Below, one piece after another: positions 16,312 to 32,135 of a stretch of DNA of 34,104 nt. The position numbers and the translations under genes were made by a program. Numbering within the stretch: position 1 is the first letter of the stretch; each line of letters starts with the position of its first letter. Under the pieces are notes generated by a model. The model was not told where the DNA came from. It saw nothing but the letters and a program-made list of their open reading frames with translations, and did not search any database. This DNA comes from Pseudoduganella sp. (GTDB taxonomy: Bacteria > Pseudomonadota > Gammaproteobacteria > Burkholderiales > Burkholderiaceae_D): contig DASVVD010000364.1 of assembly GCA_036386715.1 (NCBI GenBank), positions 1 to 34,104 of the forward strand. Direction: 5' to 3'.

Positions 16312-18090
<1,779 letters not shown>

Positions 18091-18155
18091 TCGGTAGCCA
18101 GTAGCCAGCAACCAGCAATCAACAAGCACGTAACAGGCAACAAAGGAGAACCACC

Positions 18156-18932
18156 ATGCCAAGATTCGCAGCCAACCTGACCATGCTCTTCAACGAGCTG
18201 CCGTTCCTGGAACGCTTCAAGGCCGCGGCCGACGCCGGCTTCAAGGGTGTCGAGTACCTGTTCCCGTACCCGTTCGCCAAGGAAGAACTGGCGGCGCAGC
18301 TGGAACAGCACGGCCTGACGCAGGTGTTGCACAACCTGCCGGCCGGGAACTGGGAAAAGGGCGAGCGGGGCATTGCCTGCCACCCGGACCGCGTGGAAGA
18401 GTTCCGCGAAGGCGTGGACCGGGCGATCGAGTACGCCACCGCGCTGCGCTGCCGCACCGTCAACTGCCTGGTCGGCATTGCGCCGGCCGGCGTGAGCGAG
18501 GACGTGCTGCGCCAGACGGTGGTCGACAACCTGGCCTACGCCGCGGCGAAGCTGAAGGCAGCGGGCATCCGCCTGCTGGTCGAGCCGATCAACACGTACG
18601 ACATTCCGGGCTTCTACCTGAACCGCACGGAACAGGCGCTGCGCATCCTGGATGAAGTGGGCTCCGACAACCTGTTCGTGCAGTACGACGTGTACCACGC
18701 CCAGCGCACCGAAGGGGAACTGGGCGCCACGCTGGCGCGCCATCTCGACCGCATCGGCCACATCCAGGTGGCCGACAACCCGGGGCGCAACGAACCGGGC
18801 ACCGGCGAGATCAACTATGCCTGGCTGTTCCGCCACATCGACAAGCTGGGCTACGACGGCTGGATCGGCTGCGAATACAAGCCCGCCGGCGACACGCGCG
18901 ACGGCCTGCGCTGGCTGGAAGCAGTGAAGTAA
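18156..18932 (+). CDS. hyi: Hydroxypyruvate isomerase
   Basis: MPRFAANLTMLF, VEYLFPY, LHNLPAGNW, HIQVADNPGRNEPGTGEINY; follows gcl. Confidence 0.95.
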   Translation: MPRFAANLTMLFNELPFLERFKAAADAGFKGVEYLFPYPFAKEELAAQLEQHGLTQVLHNLPAGNWEKGERGIACHPDRVEEFREGVDRAIEYATALRCRTVNCLVGIAPAGVSEDVLRQTVVDNLAYAAAKLKAAGIRLLVEPINTYDIPGFYLNRTEQALRILDEVGSDNLFVQYDVYHAQRTEGELGATLARHLDRIGHIQVADNPGRNEPGTGEINYAWLFRHIDKLGYDGWIGCEYKPAGDTRDGLRWLEAVK

Positions 18933-19001
18933 CGACATCAGGTGCTGCGCGACGAACCGCAGCACGAACGCATAACTGACGAGAACACAGAGGAGAACAT
19001 C

Positions 19002-19904
19002 ATGGCAAATATCGGATTCATCGGCCTGGGCATCATGGGCGCCCCAATGGCAAAACACCTGGCGGACAACGGCCACAAGCTGTTCACCTATTCGCAGACG
19101 CCGACGCCTTCGAACCTGATCGAAGCCGGCGCCAGCGTGTGCGCCTGCGGTACCGACGTGGCGAAAGCCGCCGACATCATCATCGTGATGGTGCCGGACA
19201 CGCCGCACGTGGAAGACGTGCTGTTCGGCGAGCACGGCCTGTCGAAAGGCCTCACCGCCGGCAAGATCGTGGTCGACATGAGCTCGATCTCGCCGGTCGC
19301 CACCAAGGAATTCGCCAAGCGCATCAACGCGCTGGGCTGCGAATACCTCGATGCGCCGGTCTCCGGCGGCGAAGTGGGCGCCAAGGCCGCATCGCTGACC
19401 ATCATGGTCGGCGGCAGCGAGAAGGCATTCGAGACCGTGAAACCGCTGTTCCAGCTGATGGGCAAGAACATCACGCTGGTGGGCGGCAACGGCGACGGCC
19501 AGATCACCAAGGTGGCCAACCAGATCATCGTGGCGCTGACGATCGAAGCGGTCGGCGAAGCGCTGCTGCTGGCATCGAAGGCCGGCGCCGATCCGGCCCG
19601 CGTGCGTGAAGCGCTGATGGGCGGCTTTGCCGCGTCGCGCATCCTGGAAGTGCACGGCGAGCGCATGATCAAGCGCACCTTCGACCCGGGCTTCCGCATC
19701 GACCTGCACCGCAAGGACCTGAACCTGGCCCTGACGACCGCGCGCCAGCTGAACATGTCGCTGCCGAACACCGCGACCGCGCAGGAACTGTTCAACGCCT
19801 GCGCCGCGCGCGACGGCGGCGGCTGGGACCACTCGGCCATGGTGCGCGCACTCGAAGTGATGGCCAATTTCGAGATCGGCCAGCAGGCAGGGAACTCGAA
19901 ATGA
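19002..19904 (+). CDS. glxR: 2-hydroxy-3-oxopropionate (tartronate semialdehyde) reductase
   Basis: IGFIGLGIMGAPMA, DAPVSGGEVGA, KVANQIIVA, FDPGFRIDLHRKDL; AGGAG RBS before ATG 19002. Confidence 0.93.
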   Translation: MANIGFIGLGIMGAPMAKHLADNGHKLFTYSQTPTPSNLIEAGASVCACGTDVAKAADIIIVMVPDTPHVEDVLFGEHGLSKGLTAGKIVVDMSSISPVATKEFAKRINALGCEYLDAPVSGGEVGAKAASLTIMVGGSEKAFETVKPLFQLMGKNITLVGGNGDGQITKVANQIIVALTIEAVGEALLLASKAGADPARVREALMGGFAASRILEVHGERMIKRTFDPGFRIDLHRKDLNLALTTARQLNMSLPNTATAQELFNACAARDGGGWDHSAMVRALEVMANFEIGQQAGNSK

Positions 19905-21163
19905 TCGCCGCGCCGCGTGAACTGTTAGGGGCAATGTTTACTGCCGCCGTGAACGCGGCGCAGCCATCGCTGACCATCGGCCGCCACCTGCCGCCGGCGC
20001 CCAAGGGCCGCACCATCGTCATCGGCGCCGGCAAGGCGTCGGCGGCGATGGCCCGGGCGCTCGAAGAGCACTGGCCGGGCAAGCTCGAAGGCGTGGTGGT
20101 CACGCGCTACGGCTATGCCGTGCCGTGCGAGCGCATCGAGATCCTCGAGGCGGCCCACCCGGTGCCGGATGCGGCCGGCCGCGTGGCGGCCGAGCGTATC
20201 CTGGCCGCGGTGCAGGGACTGACCAGCGACGACCTGGTCATCTGCCTGATTTCCGGCGGCGGCTCGTCGCTGCTGCCGCTGCCGGGCGTCGGCGTGACAC
20301 TGGAGGACAAGCAGGCGATCAACCGCGCGCTGCTGTCTTGCGGCGCCACGATCACCGAGATGAACTGCGTGCGCCGCCACCTGTCCGCCATCAAGGGCGG
20401 GCGGCTGGCCGCGGCGTGCTACCCGGCGCGCGTGGTCAACCTCCTGATTTCCGACGTGCCGGGCGACCACCCGGCCGATATCGCCTCCGGCCCGACCGTG
20501 GGCGATGCCACCACCTGCGCCGATGCGCTGGCCATCGTGAAGCGCTACGGCATCGAACTGCCGGCCGGTGCACGCCGCCTGCTCGAAAGCGGTGAGGGCG
20601 AAACACTCAAGCCGGGCGACCGGCGCCTGGAAAACGTCAGCACCCACATCATCGCCTCGCCGCAGATGGCGCTGGAAGCGGCGGCCGCCGTGGCGCTCGA
20701 CGCCGGCGTCACGCCGTTCATCCTGGGCGACAGCATCGAGGGCGAAGCCCGCGAAGTGGCCCGCGTGATGGCCGGCATCTCGCTGCAGGTGCAGCGGCAC
20801 AGCCAGCCGGTGGCACCGCCCTGCGTGCTGCTGTCCGGCGGTGAAACCACGGTGACCGTGCGCGGCAATGGCCGCGGCGGGCGCAACGTGGAATTCCTGC
20901 TGGCGTTGGCGGTGGCCCTCGACGGCGCGCCGAACCTGCACGCCGTGGCGGCCGATACCGACGGTGTCGACGGCGCCGAGGAAGTGGCCGGCGCCTTCAT
21001 CGGCCCGGACACATTGGCCCGCGCCTGGGCCAACGGCATCCGCCCGCGCGACAGCCTGGACAACAATGACGGGCATGGTTTCTTCGGCGCGCTTGGCGAC
21101 GCGCTGATCACCGGCCCCACACTTACGAACGTCAACGACTTCCGGGCGATTTTGTTGCTTTGA
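19901..21163 (+). CDS. ttuD: Glycerate 2-kinase, MOFRL/TtuD family
   Basis: IGAGKASAAMA, EAAHPVPD, LISGGGSSL, SGGETTV, GRGGRN, DTDGVDG, TGPTLTNVNDFRA. Confidence 0.9.
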   Translation: MIAAPRELLGAMFTAAVNAAQPSLTIGRHLPPAPKGRTIVIGAGKASAAMARALEEHWPGKLEGVVVTRYGYAVPCERIEILEAAHPVPDAAGRVAAERILAAVQGLTSDDLVICLISGGGSSLLPLPGVGVTLEDKQAINRALLSCGATITEMNCVRRHLSAIKGGRLAAACYPARVVNLLISDVPGDHPADIASGPTVGDATTCADALAIVKRYGIELPAGARRLLESGEGETLKPGDRRLENVSTHIIASPQMALEAAAAVALDAGVTPFILGDSIEGEAREVARVMAGISLQVQRHSQPVAPPCVLLSGGETTVTVRGNGRGGRNVEFLLALAVALDGAPNLHAVAADTDGVDGAEEVAGAFIGPDTLARAWANGIRPRDSLDNNDGHGFFGALGDALITGPTLTNVNDFRAILLL

Positions 21164-21223
21164 TCTCTGCTGCTTGATCTCTGCCGCCCCGAACCCTTGA
21201 CCACCTGCACCTTTGGAGAACGC

Positions 21224-22639
21224 ATGCTGCGCAAGCGCCGCTCACGGATACTGGCCACCCTTGGCCCATCCAGTTCCACGTACCAATCGATCCACGCCCT
21301 GGTGAAAGCCGGCGCCGATGTCTTCCGTCTCAACTTCAGCCACGGCAGCCATGCCGACCACGCGGAGCGCTATCGCACGATCCGCGAAGTGGAAAAGGAA
21401 ATCCGCCGCCCGATCGGCATCCTGATGGACCTGCAGGGCCCCAAGCTGCGCATCGGCCGGCTTGCCGGCGGCAAGGTGCAGCTGGTGGAAGGCAGGAAAT
21501 TCCGCCTCGACCTGGACCCGGCGGAGGGCGACGCAGTGCGCGCCTGCCTGCCGCACCCGGAAATCTTCGCCGCGCTGGAGCCGGGCACCGACCTGCTACT
21601 CGACGACGGCAAGCTGCGCCTGCGCGTGGATGCGTGCAGCCTGCAGCACGCCGAGACCACCGTGCTGACCGGCGGCGTGCTGTCGGACCGCAAGGGCGTC
21701 AACGTGCCCGGCGTGGTGCTGCCGATCTCGCCGCTGACCGAAAAGGACCGCGCCGACCTGGCCTTCGGGCTGGAGCTCGGTGTCGACTGGGTCGCGCTGT
21801 CGTTCGTGCAGCGCCCGGAAGACATCACCGAGGCGCGCGCCCTGATCGGCGACAAGGCATGGATCATGGCCAAGCTGGAGAAACCGGCTGCGATCGATGC
21901 GCTGGAAGGCATCGTCGCGCTGGCCGACGGCATCATGGTGGCGCGGGGCGACCTCGGCGTGGAACTGCCGGCGCACCAGGTGCCGGTGCTGCAACGGCGC
22001 ATCGTGCATGCCTCGCGCGCCGCCGGCAAGCCGGTCGTCGTCGCCACGCAGATGCTGGAATCGATGATCGCTTCACCGGTGCCGACGCGCGCCGAGGTAT
22101 CCGACGTGGCAACCGCGATCTACCAGGGCGCCGACGCGGTGATGCTGTCGGCCGAATCGGCCTCCGGCCAGTTCCCGGTCGAATCGGTGACCGTGATGGC
22201 CAACGTGATCACTGAAGTCGAGCAGGACCCGCTGTGGCGCGACGGCCTCGATGCCAGCCACTCGCCAGCCACCGCGACGACAGCCGATGCGATCTGCTGC
22301 GCGCTGCGCCGCGTCGACCGGCTGCTCAAGCCCGCCGCCACGGTGACCTACACGCTCTCCGGCGCGAGCTGCCTGCGCGCGAGCCGCGAACGGCCAAGCT
22401 CGCCGATCCTGGCGCTGACGCCGCAACCGGCCATCGCGCGCCGGCTGGCGCTGGCATGGGGCGTGCACCCGATGCCGTTCGACGAGGCAACCACGCTGAA
22501 CGGCATGATCGCCGACGCCTCCGCCGCTGCCTTGCAGAGCGGGCTGGCTGCGCTGGGCGACGACGTGGTGGTCATCGCGGGCTACCCGTCCGGTTCGGCC
22601 GGCAAGACCAACCTGCTGCACGTGGTGCGGGTGGAGTAG
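21224..22639 (+). CDS. pyk: Pyruvate kinase (TtuE-like)
   Basis: ILATLGPSS, FRLNFSHG, DLQGPKLR, IMVARGDLGVE, ATQMLESM, DAVMLSAESA; GGAG RBS before ATG 21224. Confidence 0.95.
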   Translation: MLRKRRSRILATLGPSSSTYQSIHALVKAGADVFRLNFSHGSHADHAERYRTIREVEKEIRRPIGILMDLQGPKLRIGRLAGGKVQLVEGRKFRLDLDPAEGDAVRACLPHPEIFAALEPGTDLLLDDGKLRLRVDACSLQHAETTVLTGGVLSDRKGVNVPGVVLPISPLTEKDRADLAFGLELGVDWVALSFVQRPEDITEARALIGDKAWIMAKLEKPAAIDALEGIVALADGIMVARGDLGVELPAHQVPVLQRRIVHASRAAGKPVVVATQMLESMIASPVPTRAEVSDVATAIYQGADAVMLSAESASGQFPVESVTVMANVITEVEQDPLWRDGLDASHSPATATTADAICCALRRVDRLLKPAATVTYTLSGASCLRASRERPSSPILALTPQPAIARRLALAWGVHPMPFDEATTLNGMIADASAAALQSGLAALGDDVVVIAGYPSGSAGKTNLLHVVRVE

Positions 22640-26209: not shown

Positions 26210-28753
26210 CTATTTGCCCTCGACCGTCATCAGGAAACCGCTTTTCGGCACCGCCGGCAAGCGGGTCAGGTCGAGGGCCAGGTCTTGCGGCGGCACGCTG
26301 TAGGCCATGCCGCCGGCCAGCCAGCGCGCGGCGCGCTTCATCAGCTCGACCGTGATCCATTCGCCCGGGCAGCGGTGGCCCGTCACCGCGTTGCCGCCAC
26401 CTTGCGGCACGAAGGTGTAGGGATTCTCCTGCCAGGTGGCGAAGCGCTCCGGCTGGAAGCGCGCCGGCGACTGCCAGCCTCGCGGATCATGGTTGATGCC
26501 GTGCAGGTCGAGCATCACCCGGCGCCCCGCCGTAAAGCGGTAACCCTGCCATTCGAAGTCGTGGCGCACCCTTGCCACGGCGGCCGGGAAGAACGGATAG
26601 TAGCGCCGCACTTCCTGGGCGAACCAGTCGGCATAGCTGCCGTCTTCATCGTTGCGCAATGGCGCGCGGCACTCGGGGAACTCGTGCAGCGCCAGCGCCT
26701 CGTGGACGATGTACACGGCGACGGCCACCGTGGGCCGCAGCACGTTCAGCAGCTCCACGGCGGCGGTGCGCCGGTCCAGCGGGCGGCCGTCGAAGTCGGT
26801 ATGGTGGGCCACCGCGTACGCGGCGGTATCGACCGGCACGTTCAGTTGCCCCGCGCGTATACGCTCGATGACATCGCCGCACCAGCGCTGCGCCTTCAGG
26901 CGCGACAGGCGGCTGGCCCAGTGCCATGGCCCGGCCGCGCCGGCCAGGTCGAACAGGGCGGAAAGCTGCGCGGTGCGGCGATGTACGTCCTGTTCCGGCA
27001 GCGGCACGCCGGCCCATTCGCACACGGCACGCGTGAGCACCTCGCGCACCTCGCGGTACAGCTGCACCTTCGGCGCGGTTGCCCATTTGCGCGTCGACAC
27101 CTGCCACCATGCGTCGAACAGGTCGCCCAGGTCGCGGATGCGGGCCGGCGACATCAGCTTCATGAACAGGCTCTTGCGGTTGCCGTGCGCAGCATCGTCC
27201 AGCGTCTGCACGCCGCCGCGGCCGAACAGCGTGGCCTGCACCCGCAACGGGGCCGCGCCCTTGCGGATGAAGCGGGTGTGGTCGTAGAACAGTTCCGCGG
27301 CCGCCGGCCCGGTCATGCAGATCGTTTTGCGCAGCAGCAGCCGGGTTTCGAACACATCGCTGCCGAGCCGTTCGCACTGCTTGCGCAGGTAGCCGTACGG
27401 ATCCAGCTTCAGCGCCAGCGTGGCGTCCAGCCGGCCGTCGCGCGGCATCGGCCGGCCGGCATGGCCGGCTGCGGGCAGGGCATCGGTGGCCGTCAAGCTA
27501 TCCGCCGCGGCCACCAGCACCTGCACCTTCTGTACGGTGTTCACGCCATAGCCTTCCAGGTTCCACATCGCCGCGTCGCTGTCCGGCTGTACATTGCCGA
27601 GCGCATCGGTGGCGCGGCACCACAGCGCATGGTGGCCAGGCACGGCATCCCACTCGCAGGACCAGCCGGCCCAGGCAAACCGGGCGGGCGGCGGTTGCAG
27701 GCGCGCCACGCGCCATGTGTGTCCGCCGTCGGCCGAGAACTCCACCCGAGTCACCGGTGCCCAACCCGACCACGCGCGCCCCTGCACGACGATCTTGCCT
27801 GGTTGCAGGAAACGCTGGCGGTCGGTGGCGTCCGGCACGCCGGGTGGGATCATCACGGCATGGGGATTCTGGCGCGTGACCGGCAGGCCGGGATCGTCGG
27901 GATCCTGCTTGTAGCGATACAGCACCGCCTGCTGCACGCCGCGGAACGGCCGGGTCGACGCCGTGATCGTGCCCAGCCACTTGACCGAGGCCACCCCGTA
28001 CCAGCCCGGCACGATCAGCCGCAGCGGATAGCCGTGCTGCGGGGGCAGCGGCTGCCCGTTCATCTCGTAGGCCAGCAGCACGTCGTCGCGCAGCGCTTCC
28101 GCCAGCGGCAGGCTGCGTTCGAAAGGATGCTCGATGCCTTCCGCATAGCCATGGTCATGGCCGCTGAAAACGATCTCGACGACATCGCCGGCCAGGCCGG
28201 CCTGCTCGAGGATCGGGCGCAGCGGCGTGCCGGTCCATTCGGCGCAGCCCATCGCCTCGTCCTGCCACGGCCACAGTGCCGGGCGGGGGTGCAGCTTGGC
28301 CCGGCCCGTGCCCGAACACTCCAGCACCACGGGCGCGGTGACGCGTGGCCGGGCGCGCAGGTCGGCGAGGGTCAGTTCGAGCGGCTGGCGCACGGCCCCG
28401 CCGATATGCAAGACGAAGCGCGCGGCATCGAGTGGCGGAATGTCGAAGTGGTGCAGCACGTAGTGCATGCCGGCCGGCGTGACCGGGTAACGCAGGCCCT
28501 CCAGCGGCAGGCCGTGATTGCGGCGTGCCAGCGCCAGTTCATGGCCCTCGACGGCGCCATCCGCCAGCTTGGGGTGCGCGTTGCCGGCCAGCCGTGCCAG
28601 GCCGGCCAGCTCGCCCGGCTGGGCGCCGGCAAATGCCGACCTCGGCGCCGGCGGCGCGAAGTGCGGATAACTCTGCCGGGTCAGGTCCAGCAAACGGGAC
28701 CAGGCCTGGCTGGGAATGGCGGAATGTGCACGTTGCTTCATCGGCGCGACCAT
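26210..28753 (-). CDS. Fusion of sulfite oxidase-family molybdopterin oxidoreductase (N-terminal) and CYP152-family cytochrome P450 fatty-acid peroxygenase (C-terminal)
   Basis: N half: RNHGLPLEGL, LECSGTGR (Mo-ligand Cys), AYEMNGQPLPPQHGYPLRLIVPGWYGVASVKWL, dimerisation domain GRAWSG...VEFSADGG...RATDALGNVQP. C half from Met436: LFGRGGVQTLD, ELLNVLRPTVAV, FAQEVRRYYPFFP, PQGGG..GHRCPGEWIT (heme Cys). Start could be 28741. Confidence 0.9.
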   Translation of the reverse strand: MVAPMKQRAHSAIPSQAWSRLLDLTRQSYPHFAPPAPRSAFAGAQPGELAGLARLAGNAHPKLADGAVEGHELALARRNHGLPLEGLRYPVTPAGMHYVLHHFDIPPLDAARFVLHIGGAVRQPLELTLADLRARPRVTAPVVLECSGTGRAKLHPRPALWPWQDEAMGCAEWTGTPLRPILEQAGLAGDVVEIVFSGHDHGYAEGIEHPFERSLPLAEALRDDVLLAYEMNGQPLPPQHGYPLRLIVPGWYGVASVKWLGTITASTRPFRGVQQAVLYRYKQDPDDPGLPVTRQNPHAVMIPPGVPDATDRQRFLQPGKIVVQGRAWSGWAPVTRVEFSADGGHTWRVARLQPPPARFAWAGWSCEWDAVPGHHALWCRATDALGNVQPDSDAAMWNLEGYGVNTVQKVQVLVAAADSLTATDALPAAGHAGRPMPRDGRLDATLALKLDPYGYLRKQCERLGSDVFETRLLLRKTICMTGPAAAELFYDHTRFIRKGAAPLRVQATLFGRGGVQTLDDAAHGNRKSLFMKLMSPARIRDLGDLFDAWWQVSTRKWATAPKVQLYREVREVLTRAVCEWAGVPLPEQDVHRRTAQLSALFDLAGAAGPWHWASRLSRLKAQRWCGDVIERIRAGQLNVPVDTAAYAVAHHTDFDGRPLDRRTAAVELLNVLRPTVAVAVYIVHEALALHEFPECRAPLRNDEDGSYADWFAQEVRRYYPFFPAAVARVRHDFEWQGYRFTAGRRVMLDLHGINHDPRGWQSPARFQPERFATWQENPYTFVPQGGGNAVTGHRCPGEWITVELMKRAARWLAGGMAYSVPPQDLALDLTRLPAVPKSGFLMTVEGK

Positions 28754-28877
28754 ATGGTTGCCGGGCCGGCGCCGGCGGGAACTGAAGCTTAGCAGCGGGC
28801 GCGCTGCGAAGGGCGCACGGGTCTTCCAGGAAATATGCGCCCAGGATCGCGCGCCGTCGGGATGCCCGTGCCGGGTT

Positions 28878-29510
28878 CTACGCGCCGTGCTCGAGCGCCT
28901 CCATCAAGCCGGCCATCGCCGGGCAGGCGCCTTCCGCCCGAAGCCCCGCAATGACGCCTTGCCGGTCGGCGGGCGCCCGGTTCTGGCTGGCCTTCCACTT
29001 CCCGTCGATGGCGCGCACGGGGATCTCGATGCCGGCCAGCCCTTTGGTCAGTGCCGCGATAAAGTCATCCGGCGCATCCGCGATCCGCCACGGGTGCTCG
29101 CGGCCATCCTCATGGTCGCTTGTCAGTTGCTGGAGTTGCGCCAGAATCCAGGCCGCATCGTCGATGACGCGTGGTGCGCCGCGTGCCTGCACCATCGCAT
29201 AATTCCAGGTGGGCACCACCTTTCCATGTTCGGCTTTCGACGCATACCACGAGGGCGACACATAACTGTCCGGCCCCTGGAACACCACCAGCGCCTCGGC
29301 CCCTTCGCGCAGCGCATCGAGCTGCCTGTTGTTCCGTCCCAGGTGGGCGCGCAGGATCCCATGGTCGCCGCCTTCGTGCAGCGAGAACGGAACGAGGTTC
29401 GCTTCCAGTTCGCCACTGCCGAAGGTCACCAGGGTCGCCAGCGGATGGGCGCGCATCAGGCCATGGAGAACGTCGAGCCGGTCTTCCCTGAACGGTTGTG
29501 GGCAATGCAT
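28878..29510 (-). CDS. PaiB-family (FMN-binding split-barrel) protein
   Basis: HPLATLVT, LRAHLGRNN, FQGPDSYVSPSWY, VPTWNYAMV, GKWKASQNR. Confidence 0.9.
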   Translation of the reverse strand: MHCPQPFREDRLDVLHGLMRAHPLATLVTFGSGELEANLVPFSLHEGGDHGILRAHLGRNNRQLDALREGAEALVVFQGPDSYVSPSWYASKAEHGKVVPTWNYAMVQARGAPRVIDDAAWILAQLQQLTSDHEDGREHPWRIADAPDDFIAALTKGLAGIEIPVRAIDGKWKASQNRAPADRQGVIAGLRAEGACPAMAGLMEALEHGA

Positions 29511-29557
29511 CGCGAGTCCTTTCGGTTTATCAGTTGAGACATGTATTCTTGCGCAGA

Positions 29558-29605
29558 ACTGGACTATTATTCAGTGCCGGATAAGAAGAAAATGACTGGG
29601 CCAGT
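29558..29605. promoter_or_regulatory. Candidate MocR-family operator
   Basis: ACTGG (29558-29562), ACTGG (29595-29599) and inverted CCAGT (29601-29605) around an AT-rich tract between divergent paiB-like and MocR genes. Confidence 0.35.
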
Positions 29606-29629
29606 TTTGTCGTACAGGAAAGGGAGGCC

Positions 29630-31126
29630 ATGGCGAGACGCCGGCTAGTAGTGGAAATTCCGGCACTCGGGGCAGTCGATCGCACCCGCGGCAGTGTCGG
29701 GCGACAATTGGCGGATGTGCTTCGTGGCGCCATCGGCAACGGACAGCTGCGGGCCGGCGAGCGGCTGCCGTCCAGCAGGGCCCTGGCCGAATCCCTGAAC
29801 CTGTCCCGCGGGACGGTGAGCGAAGCGTACGACCAGCTGGTCGCCGAGGGATTCCTGGATGCCCGGGCAGGTTCCGGCACGCGCGTCGCGCCCGGCCTGG
29901 GCGAAGCGGCATTCGCCACGCAACCCATGCCGGACGAGTCCCCGGGGCAGGACCCGTTGCTTCCTGTGCCGGCCGCGCGGTACGCCGCCATGGCGGCCGG
30001 GCTTACGCCCTTGTCGCAGGTGCCTTTTTCGGTGGCCGTGCCGGATGGCGACGTGGCGATGGACGATCACTGGCGCCGGCTCGGCAATCGCGTTCGCGCC
30101 TCGCAGGCTGCCATGCCGTCCGGCTATCCGGACCCGCAGGGCCTGCCAGCCTTGCGGGAAGCCATCGCGGACTACCTGCGGCGGGCACGCGCCGTGAGAA
30201 CCGGTGCCGCGAACATCGTCATCACCGAAGGAACCCAGCAGGGCCTGTACCTGGCCGCCAAGGTGCTGCTGGCCGCCGGCGATGCCGCATGGGCCGAAGA
30301 CCCCGCCTATCCGGGACTGACTTCGGTGCTGGAAGACCGGGGCGTGCGGGTGCACCGGATCCCCGTGGACAGGCAGGGACTGGACGTTGCGGCCGGCATG
30401 GCGGCCTGCCCCGACGCCAGGGTGGCCTTCGTGACACCGTCGCACCAGTACCCGATGGGCATGCCACTGAGCATGCCCAGGCGCCTGGCACTCGTCGAGT
30501 GGGCCCGGCGGCATGGCGGCTGGATCGTGGAAGACGACTACGACAGCGAATTGCGCTATGCCGGCCAGCCGTTCCCGGCGATGCAGGGGCTGGACAGCGG
30601 CAGGGTGGTCTACCTGGGCTCGTTCAGCAAGGTGCTGGCGCCTTCGCTGCGGCTCGGCTACATCGTGGCACCCGATTGCCTGGTCCAGGCCTTTGCCGGT
30701 GCGCGCAGCCTGATGGGGCGAGGTTCGCCATCCATGGAGCAGCATGTCATCGCGGCCTACATGCGCGAGGGATATTTCGAAACGCATATCCGGCGGATTC
30801 GCGGCATCTATGCCGAACGGCGCGAGGTGCTGATGGATGCGCTGTGGGCCGAGCTGCCCCGGTTGCGCATCGAACCCGCCGACCAGGGCATGCACATCGT
30901 TGCCTGGCTTCCCGAGGGCCTGGACGATGTCGCGATCGCGTCGGCGGCCTGCGAGGCAGGTGTCGCCTTGCGGGCACTGTCGCCCATGTGCTCCAGCAAC
31001 CTGCGGTACGCCGCCCTGATGCTGGGCTTCGGCGGCTTTACCGCCAGGGAATTGCAAGACGCCGTGCGAACGCTGCGCCGTGTGCTGGGCCGATTCATGA
31101 ACGTCGATGCCGGTCATCCGCCTTGA
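29630..31126 (+). CDS. MocR/GabR family regulator (GntR HTH plus PLP aminotransferase-like domain)
   Basis: GERLPSSRALA...SRGTVSEAYDQLVAEG; VTPSHQYPMG, WIVEDDYDSE, YLGSFSKVLAPSLRLGY. Confidence 0.93.
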   Translation: MARRRLVVEIPALGAVDRTRGSVGRQLADVLRGAIGNGQLRAGERLPSSRALAESLNLSRGTVSEAYDQLVAEGFLDARAGSGTRVAPGLGEAAFATQPMPDESPGQDPLLPVPAARYAAMAAGLTPLSQVPFSVAVPDGDVAMDDHWRRLGNRVRASQAAMPSGYPDPQGLPALREAIADYLRRARAVRTGAANIVITEGTQQGLYLAAKVLLAAGDAAWAEDPAYPGLTSVLEDRGVRVHRIPVDRQGLDVAAGMAACPDARVAFVTPSHQYPMGMPLSMPRRLALVEWARRHGGWIVEDDYDSELRYAGQPFPAMQGLDSGRVVYLGSFSKVLAPSLRLGYIVAPDCLVQAFAGARSLMGRGSPSMEQHVIAAYMREGYFETHIRRIRGIYAERREVLMDALWAELPRLRIEPADQGMHIVAWLPEGLDDVAIASAACEAGVALRALSPMCSSNLRYAALMLGFGGFTARELQDAVRTLRRVLGRFMNVDAGHPP

Positions 31127-31478
31127 TGCGGGGCAGGGAACGGCATAGGGCTTTGCCCGATTTGCCAGTGCCCGACTTTGCCTGGCCGCTTGACATGCCA
31201 AAGAAGGAAGTTCACAGATTCCGGATCGGCGTCCTTGCCACGTATCGTTTCGACAACGCCGCAATTCGGCGTGCAGAAAGTACTGCTGAGCTTGCGACCC
31301 GCGCCAGTTCGTTATCTGTTGATACCAAATAGTGCAACGAAGGCATTCGATCGGAAAGCCGGTAAACAATGTTAAGAAATTCTTAAATTCTGGTTGCTTT
31401 AGGAAAGCGTCTGGTTACAGTAGAGCTGCACTTGCTGAAAATGAAATCACCTTTCCAACATCTACCAGGGAGTTGACT

Positions 31479-32135
31479 GTGCGTATTCCAAGTTCTGTCT
31501 CGACCGCAATCCTTTCCGCAATGCTGTTGTGCGCCGCTGGTGCCGCGCAAGCAGGAATCACCACTTACACCAGCCAGAGTGCCTACCTGGCCGCCGTCGG
31601 CAATACCGGTGTCGATACATTCGACGACCTGGAAGTGCGCTCGTATCAGGGGCCACTGGATCGCTTCGCGGGGGACTATGGCTATACCGTTTCCGCCGGC
31701 CCCGAAGCAACGACAGTCTGGGGCGCTAGCGATGACCTCTCGGACATGTGGCTGACCGGCGACAATCGTCTGGACGTTGTGTCGTTCGCCGCATCGACCC
31801 CGATCGCCGGTGCTGGCGGCTACTTTTTCGGCTCCGACCTCTTTGGTTCCTCCACACAGGCGGAATTCGTCACCCTGACCGCAACCGACAGCACCGGCGC
31901 GACGGTAACGTACACGCTGGATGCACCAGGCTTCGATTCGTTCGTCGGTTTCGTTTCAACCGACAATCTGGTCTCGCTGACGATGGCGACAGGCGATCAA
32001 CCGGGCGTATGGGCCACCGTGAACGACCTGCACCTGTCTGTCGCGGCCGTACCGGAGCCAAGTACCTACGGCATGCTGCTGGGTGGGCTGAGTCTGGTCG
32101 GCTACATGGCGCGCCGTAAAGCGAAAAAAGGCTGA
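31479..32135 (+). CDS. PEP-CTERM sorting-domain surface protein
   Basis: GTG start after AGGGAG; signal peptide ending AAQA; C-terminal VPEPSTYGMLLGGLSLVGYMARRKAKKG. Confidence 0.9.
   Translation: MRIPSSVSTAILSAMLLCAAGAAQAGITTYTSQSAYLAAVGNTGVDTFDDLEVRSYQGPLDRFAGDYGYTVSAGPEATTVWGASDDLSDMWLTGDNRLDVVSFAASTPIAGAGGYFFGSDLFGSSTQAEFVTLTATDSTGATVTYTLDAPGFDSFVGFVSTDNLVSLTMATGDQPGVWATVNDLHLSVAAVPEPSTYGMLLGGLSLVGYMARRKAKKG

Follow-up and report, generated by a model that had tools for sequence, protein, structure and literature searches.

A natural fusion of a sulfite-oxidase-fold molybdenum domain to a CYP152 cytochrome P450, a possible self-fuelling peroxygenase

To our knowledge, the cellular source of the peroxide used by CYP152 cytochromes P450 is unsettled. 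The question becomes testable in one protein when nature joins such an enzyme to a candidate oxidase. Here, we describe a chain of this kind encoded in a 34,104-nucleotide stretch of DNA from Pseudoduganella sp. (assembly GCA_036386715.1, contig DASVVD010000364.1), which is a whole contig of its genome (G000) and is referred to below as the window. A reading made from the sequence alone had proposed that the protein joins a sulfite-oxidase-family molybdenum (Mo) domain to a CYP152 peroxygenase, and that the former supplies H2O2 (or electrons) to the latter. Does this fusion exist in nature and, if so, do its two halves work together?

The gene lies at positions 26210-28753 on the minus strand (the sequence-only reading had given no strand) and forms, as that reading had it, a single stop-free frame of 847 codons from its first ATG. 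The domain content it described also stands: Pfam recognizes Oxidored_molyb at residues 102-272 (E 2.5e-55) and Mo-co_dimer at residues 318-412, followed by p450, and the NCBIfam CYP152 CypC model matches residues 435-843. The halves are connected by a linker of ~20 residues, and no Shine-Dalgarno-like sequence precedes the internal ATG (27448) at which the MPRD sequence of the P450 starts. Both features were noted correctly from the sequence, although the missing Shine-Dalgarno sequence is weak evidence, because upstream ATGs lack one as well. The second ATG, at 28741, is the likely start of the protein (843 aa), since the NCBI record P0003 begins there and relatives align from that residue. 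The third-position GC content is alike in the two halves (0.86 and 0.89).

The fusion is real, natural and conserved. A protein search limited to 465-1483 aa returned 111 matches among 7998 scored candidates, four of which carry all three domains: the window's own protein, P0005, P0006 and P0007. Their clusters hold ten full-length and four partial members, and P0508 represents a fifth 90% cluster. The recurrence that the sequence-only reading had proposed to look for is therefore found in 11 other full-length records (P0005, P0117, P0118, P0006, P0007, P0120, P0122-P0125 and P0508) from four other 90% clusters, with 74-80% identity to the window protein. At least nine of these records are distinct sequences, two pairs being identical at rounding. 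DNA was recovered for two of the fusions (L021 and L022, 2 of 39 metagenome loci), and both are stop-free across the join, with neither the stop codon nor the frameshift in the linker that would have split the gene in two. Contigs from all four runs compared, belonging to three studies, bridge the linker: X1, possibly from the source sample, spans 27130-27646 with 0 differences, while X2 (26901-28098), X3 (27385-27681) and X4 (27398-27788) establish bridging rather than an open frame. Because the other records, the stop-free DNA of L021 and L022 and the bridging contigs all share the join, it is not an assembly artefact.

Both halves also appear to be maintained. Nei-Gojobori comparisons of the window with L021 and L022, three sequences only, with domain dS values of 0.55-0.85, gave dN/dS ratios (L021/L022) of 0.13/0.15 for the Mo domain, 0.19/0.19 for the dimerisation domain and 0.23/0.23 for the P450. 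The ratios were 0.38/0.44 for the N-terminal extension and 0.45/0.20 for 19 linker codons. These values indicate that purifying selection acts on both halves, both of which are apparently functional. Among the 12 full-length fusions, the span corresponding to residues 410-435 occurs in five lengths (23-28 residues), all in frame, a result biased by the fact that broken copies would not show up as full-length proteins. The positions of the gene and its parts are collected in Table 1.

Table 1 Parts of the fusion gene and of its upstream region in the window
Feature	Position	Strand	Basis
Fusion gene, 847 codons from first ATG; likely start 28741	26210..28753	-	Reading frame and alignments
Upstream motif, extended -10-like core TGnTAAGCT, ~44 nt before the 28741 ATG	28785..28796	-	Conservation
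N-terminal extension, residues 5-65	28559..28741	-	Alignment, model
Molybdopterin-binding domain, residues 66-300, sulfite-oxidase fold	27854..28558	-	Pfam, alignment, model
Mo-domain residues: Arg78; Leu100; Mo-ligand Cys146; also His102, Thr149, Arg151, Tyr279	28520-28522 (Arg78); 28454-28456 (Leu100); 28316-28318 (Cys146)		
Mo-co dimerisation domain, residues 301-415; Glu400 at 27554-27556	27509..27853	-	Pfam, alignment
Ala/Pro-rich linker, residues 416-435 (~20 residues)	27449..27508	-	
CYP152 domain, residues 436-847	26210..27448	-	NCBIfam, PDB alignment
CYP152 residues: Arg673-Pro674; heme-ligand Cys795; also Phe510, Gln516	26732-26737 (Arg673-Pro674); 26369-26371 (Cys795)		

The P450 half is a complete domain whose best matches in the PDB are the CYP152 enzymes P450SPalpha (CYP152B1, 3awm), P450BSbeta (CYP152A1, 1izo) and OleT (CYP152L1, 4l40). 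The closest is P450SPalpha (E 3.5e-137, 401 residues aligned with one 2-residue gap). These three are single-domain proteins of ~415 aa, to which the fusion adds a Mo module of 430 residues. It shares with them the heme-thiolate cysteine, Cys795 in GHRCPGE, and the Arg-Pro pair: Arg673-Pro674 aligns with Arg241-Pro242 of P450SPalpha, where an acid-alcohol pair otherwise stands in the I-helix. Gln516 occupies the site of P450SPalpha Q84 and Phe510 that of L78, and the Arg-Pro pair, Cys795, Gln516 and Phe510 are invariant in all 12 fusions. According to PMC5818669, the Arg-Pro pair is the hallmark of the peroxygenases and His85 the OleT state; the OleT-type histidine is absent here, Gln516 standing at its site in 12/12 fusions. 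The NCBIfam CypC equivalog model NF053744 scores 533.9 bits over profile positions 4-411 of 416, below its cut-off of 600. The other fusions reach 514-528 bits and the unfused P0277 527.7 bits, so by profile scores the match is clear at the level of the CYP152 family but not of the CypC equivalog. The P450 half would thus be expected to carry out H2O2-driven fatty-acid hydroxylation with the carboxylate bound at Arg673. It is most likely an alpha/beta-hydroxylase, an assignment preferred because glutamine and not histidine stands at the OleT His85 site.

For the Mo half, an AlphaFold2 model of good quality was obtained (pLDDT 90, from a 92-row alignment), while a full-length model based on a 4-row alignment (pLDDT 35) was not used. 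Foldseek aligned the Mo-half model with SorA (2blf), chicken sulfite oxidase (1sox), SorT (4pw3) and plant sulfite oxidase (1ogp) at TM scores of 0.71-0.75, with an E of 3e-39 to SorA and a TM of 0.74 to both SorA and the plant enzyme. The fusion shares with these proteins the SUOX fold, the dimerisation domain and the Mo-ligand Cys, His, second Arg and Tyr, as Cys146, His102, Arg151 and Tyr279 align with SorA C104, H57, R109 and Y236; like the plant enzyme, it has no heme b5. Unlike all of them, it has a leucine (Leu100) for the central arginine, and unlike the chicken and plant enzymes it has a glutamate, Glu400, in place of the substrate-binding Arg (R450 of the chicken WNLRG motif, R374 in plant sulfite oxidase), a site occupied by Ala358 in SorA. 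Thr149 stands at the site of SorA N107. In contrast to SorAB, SorT and SoxCD, no export signal was seen and no cytochrome c gene lies beside the fusion in the three loci available, and in contrast to MsrP/YedY, with their small Mo subunit, it has a Mo-co_dimer domain. The NCBIfam cut-offs for SorA (204/600 bits), SoxC (194/420), SorT (169/570) and MsrP (39.6/207) were all missed.

These features place the Mo half in a large uncharacterised cytoplasmic subfamily rather than among plant-type sulfite oxidases, so that the plant analogy drawn in the sequence-only reading is not supported in its simple form. The subfamily comprises at least 6584 of 7997 scored candidates at E<=1e-90, mostly from Actinomycetota and Chloroflexota, and probably corresponds to the uncharacterised cytoplasmic single-subunit proteins of group 3 in PMC7759655; a twin-arginine motif was seen in 0 of the 120 closest relatives. 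Its members are up to 65% identical to the Mo half and have the RN[HP]G, HY[LV]L.H and Cys motifs in common with it, but are stand-alone proteins of ~357 aa. Arg78, which might compensate for the missing central arginine, occurs in 196 of 198 relatives, a set made up of the 120 best protein matches, 78 of 80 GTDB loci and a few others. Of the 132 positions with at least 90% conservation in this set, the window Mo domain keeps 128. A decaying Mo domain, also considered, is ruled out by this conservation together with the dN/dS values. In P0073, a FAD_binding_4 oxidase-type domain is fused to a partial Mo domain of this subfamily, and FAD/BBE-like oxidase genes lie near six of the Mo loci examined (L126, L141, L142, L144, L160 and L162).

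How could the two halves be connected in function? We tentatively favour self-fuelling, in which the Mo domain supplies H2O2 to the tethered CYP152, as the most plausible single account of the protein, short of calling it probable. The Mo domain would oxidize a small donor, sulfite being the best guess. The reduced Mo would pass its electrons to O2 by analogy with the heme-free eukaryotic sulfite oxidases, and the tethered heme would use the peroxide formed in this way to hydroxylate fatty acids. Sulfite as donor, O2 as acceptor and a benefit of the tether are less well supported than the role of the P450. In favour of this account, the join has been preserved across five 90% clusters, and both halves have intact catalytic ligands and are under purifying selection. 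O2 and the tethered heme are the visible acceptors, because no twin-arginine export signal was seen in the N-terminus of the fusion and no cytochrome or other acceptor gene adjoins it in the window, L021 or L022. Plant sulfite oxidase passes electrons to O2 to give superoxide and then H2O2, and so does the vertebrate enzyme when stripped of its heme domain (PMC10574614). A second sulfite can use up the H2O2 (PMC10574614), which would be a reason to tether a consumer. The tether would let the heme capture the peroxide ahead of catalase or free sulfite. As the sequence-only reading had stated, peroxide supply by an attached oxidase has been engineered for CYP152: in vitro, a fusion of OleT with alditol oxidase performed better intact than after cleavage (PMC6563810). 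Plant sulfite oxidase with calcium sulfite drove a fungal peroxygenase (PMC9629115). Finally, in the 119 genomes of the genus the Mo half was found only fused (E<=1e-60), and no stand-alone protein more than 65% identical to it was found among the 7997 scored candidates, while close P450-only forms exist, a distribution that fits a Mo domain serving the P450. Because P450-only relatives persist, the Mo domain would be an optional booster.

The best clue to the donor is indirect and comes from Burkholderiales members of the subfamily. In 13 of 21 loci, the Mo gene stands between genes for a two-gene UxaA/SuyAB-like lyase and Sdh-like genes, and all 21 members have leucine at position 100. The cluster (L171:5219-16889 in G050; L170 and L181-L200; the lyase-Mo-SdhB core again in 13/21 loci) contains genes for a GntR regulator, the SuyAB-like lyase, the arginine-less sulfite-oxidase-family protein, SdhB/C/D-like proteins, TctC, a fumarase-like protein, an SdhA-like protein and Ldh_2, with TauD upstream. 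It is a candidate for the breakdown of 3-sulfopropanoate through sulfoacrylate and sulfolactate, a route described as ending in sulfite (PMC11489063), and the lyase context would release sulfite in the cytoplasm. The host itself carries two moaA genes, ssuD and three TauD-family genes, as well as separate SoxCD-like and MsrP-like enzymes; from this gene content it can, as far as predicted, make Moco and release cytoplasmic sulfite. A SuyB-like query gave matches of only 31-37% in its genome.

Several observations weigh against self-fuelling, and some of the comparative evidence points against an obligate partnership of Mo domain and P450. The replacement of the central arginine (SorA R55, chicken R138, human R160) by leucine is common to all 12 fusions. 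In the 198 relatives this position is Leu in 195, Val in 3 and Arg in 0; because the relatives share Leu or Val, the missing arginine is a trait of the subfamily and not decay. The human R160Q variant retains <5% of activity (PMC10574614). Glu400 (8/198) and Thr149 (10/198) are minority states even within the subfamily. Since the subfamily is uncharacterised, both sulfite oxidation and H2O2 production are assigned by inference. By definition, sulfite dehydrogenases (EC 1.8.2.1) cannot use O2 as their electron acceptor, and almost every characterised bacterial enzyme is encoded beside an acceptor gene (PMC3561395). The SuyAB-linked members lie elsewhere in the tree than the fused domain, 10 of the 13 belong to one genus, and the SuyB identity is drawn from family, subunit sizes and context only. 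No CYP152 gene was found near unfused Mo genes (0/80 with flanks of up to 5 kb, 0/21 with up to 1.5 kb), nor a Mo gene near unfused CYP152 genes (0/28, up to 1.5 kb). CYP152 domains are also joined to many unrelated partners, P0119 has lost its Mo-binding domain, G006 and three related proteins are P450-only, and the fusion has a single origin. A conserved functional neighbourhood was looked for around actinobacterial Mo relatives and unfused CYP152 genes; nothing beyond lineage synteny emerged, the commonest neighbour being a class-V aminotransferase (16 loci).

The strongest competitor, somewhat less plausible in our view and ranking close behind self-fuelling, is that the gene holds two independent enzymes: a horizontally acquired Mo gene that came to lie within the 5' region of a resident CYP152 gene, or a P450 joined behind it, the two having only a promoter and a start codon in common. 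In a quick tree of 65 rows, the five fused Mo domains group as a single clade (SH-aLRT 100), sister to a Rubrobacteraceae-rich group (85 and 94), apart from the Burkholderiales members; this kinship suggests horizontal acquisition of the Mo half from soil actinobacteria. The -10-like motif found upstream of the window fusion recurs ahead of both the L021 and L022 fusions and the CYP152 gene that stands alone in G006. Its conservation would be consistent with a promoter, although a sigma-70 scan did not pick it up. Alignment of the fusions with G006 over the motif, the leader and the first ~16 codons gives scores that 0 of 1000 dinucleotide shuffles reach at each of three loci; the scores of the coding part alone are reached by 5, 0 and 0 of 1000. 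The first ~16 codons of the fusion are thus homologous to the N-terminal arm of the G006 protein, and the predicted helix that follows them is found, among the sequences compared, in the fusion clade only. The Mo cassette therefore lies within the 5' end of a gene of which a cassette-free form is also known. Insertion of the cassette could have produced the fusion, or its deletion the G006 type, and the root of the P450 tree does not separate the two. In P0119 (586 aa, three contigs), residues ~31-291 are gone in frame and the dimerisation domain and P450 are kept, so the P450 is retained independently of the Mo domain. P0116 (470 aa) breaks off early in its P450 and has a divergent tail, owing to a frameshift or a contig end. 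Both are candidates for natural loss of one half, to which P0280 and P0281 might be added. The flanking genes of the window, encoding an S41 protease on one side and an FMN-binding protein and a MocR regulator on the other, differ from those of L021 and L022 (DUF488, HD-domain protein), and the single origin and the lack of clustering of the unfused genes also suit independent enzymes. On the other hand, the join has outlasted a synonymous divergence of 0.55-0.85 with in-frame changes in linker length, with the reservation that only unbroken copies are visible, and a Mo-only descendant was not found, P0116 possibly excepted.

The remaining alternatives keep a functional link between the domains and replace peroxide supply by another chemistry. 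We consider it unlikely that the Mo domain works in the reductive direction or protects its partner, reducing S- or N-oxides or peroxides as MsrP and mARC do and so limiting oxidative damage near the peroxygenase. The loss of two anion-binding arginine positions and the acidic Glu400 would suit a neutral or cationic substrate, human mARC reportedly reduces H2O2, and group 1 enzymes of the sulfite oxidase family work as reductases (PMC7759655). However, the Mo half is not MsrP-like in its profile score and has a dimerisation domain, an electron-donor gene is absent nearby, and members of the subfamily stand in a likely desulfonation operon. Slightly less likely still is direct electron transfer from reduced Mo to the P450 heme, as from Mo to cytochrome b5 in animal sulfite oxidase, which would run the normal O2 cycle with no free peroxide. 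The Mo potentials of the family lie above those of CYP152 hemes, making the first step uphill. An arginine called crucial for Mo-to-heme transfer in SorA (PMC3561395) is also missing here, even though CYP152 enzymes take redox partners in vitro (PMC5818669) and vertebrate sulfite oxidase has a flexible hinge between its Mo and heme domains (PMC10574614).

The fusion is rare and, as judged from the tree, of single origin. Within the genus, its own genome is the sole one of 119 that matches a query covering the Mo half and the junction (E<=1e-60), and a P450 query is matched in two. A 401-genome sample of the family gave 27 other matches at E<=1e-70, all P450-only, with two candidates scored per genome. 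A search of 50%-identity representatives returned no two-domain match among the best 150 of 15,053, which is weak evidence against further lineages because a known fusion was missed there as well. A scan of GTDB genomes with a fusion-specific pattern confirmed 0 of 67 candidate stretches, none of 375 matched plasmid records covered 80% of the junction query, no RNA record carrying the fusion appeared among the matches listed, and an ESM Atlas search gave P450 matches below 0.9 only.

Two further ideas about the history of the gene were dropped. P0280 and P0281 had seemed to document repeated loss of the Mo domain, with an AU test (p=0.040) against monophyly of the fusions. However, P0281 is 94% identical to the fusion P0508 and begins inside the P0508 linker; the two may be partial gene calls or split alleles. 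The idea that the linker duplicates the ancestral 5' end lacked statistical significance, with 32, 293 and 250 of 1000 shuffles, and its scores fell within the range of 56 control windows each.

CYP152 domains occur in other fusions as well. An Mpo1-like domain (2-hydroxy-palmitate dioxygenase family) precedes CYP152 in P0010 (confirmed), P0011, P0013, P0014, P0017, P0043 and P0045, from Sorangium and metagenomes. These are candidate one-chain enzymes of fatty-acid alpha-oxidation, with the P450 expected to form a 2-hydroxy acid that Mpo1 would then cleave. A search of the window's genome found no Mpo1-like gene. Alpha/beta-hydrolase-CYP152 fusions of 771-840 aa (P0018, P0025, P0026, P0027, P0031 and P0167) possibly contain a lipase or esterase that feeds free fatty acid to the peroxygenase. 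In P0008, P0009, P0053, P0075, P0081 and P0082, mostly single clusters, the partners are DUF6544/DUF6920, CBS, short-chain dehydrogenase, topoisomerase I core and hemerythrin domains. The Mpo1-like and alpha/beta-hydrolase partners would make sense as pathways, and the others look accidental. On the Mo side, distant sulfite-oxidase-family domains are fused to rhodanese in P0089, P0091 and P0093, two of them also with a metallo-beta-lactamase-fold domain, and are possibly one-chain sulfur-detoxifying enzymes.

Directly upstream of the fusion (28878-31126), an FMN_bind_2 (PaiB-like) gene is divergent from the gene of a MocR/PdxR-like regulator; this pair is absent beside the L021 and L022 fusions. 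Elsewhere in the window, positions 16312-22639 (+) hold an ordinary glyoxylate-assimilation run with glyoxylate carboligase (NCBIfam) and hydroxypyruvate isomerase, followed by genes that look, by eye, like those of tartronate semialdehyde reductase, glycerate kinase and pyruvate kinase. Proteins that cluster with the carboligase carry the name Pseudoduganella, which makes a host in or close to this genus probable. The contig starts with a low-GC stretch (1-2000; 0.51-0.53 vs 0.65), and a PEP-CTERM protein is encoded at 31332-32135 in a second lower-GC patch.

Full-text searches of the literature outside subscription journals listed no natural Mo-P450 fusion, in keeping with the sequence-only reading, whose author knew of none. 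The known natural self-sufficient P450s (CYP102A1/BM3 and CYP116B) carry an NAD(P)H flavin reductase in the chain and not a molybdoenzyme. In the fungal dioxygenase-P450 PpoA, the heme dioxygenase partner makes the hydroperoxide substrate. The engineered OleT-alditol oxidase and the cascade of plant sulfite oxidase with unspecific peroxygenase place an oxidase beside a peroxygenase for in situ H2O2, as predicted here, but are man-made; the former uses a flavin oxidase, and the latter separate enzymes with a non-P450 peroxygenase. With due caution, and as a claim we rate as possible rather than probable, the fusion could be the first natural oxidase-peroxygenase P450, in which a molybdoenzyme makes H2O2 for consumption by a CYP152 of the same polypeptide. 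If so, self-sufficient P450s would gain a new class that runs on air and a small donor, inorganic or organic, and a first activity would be at hand for a subfamily of thousands of arginine-less sulfite-oxidase-fold proteins. Should self-fuelling work, the protein would be a ready-made NAD(P)H-free biocatalyst, with a route of P450 fuelling that is off the usual list; should it fail, the same protein would open a large unstudied branch of the sulfite oxidase family in which an arginine considered essential for catalysis is missing.

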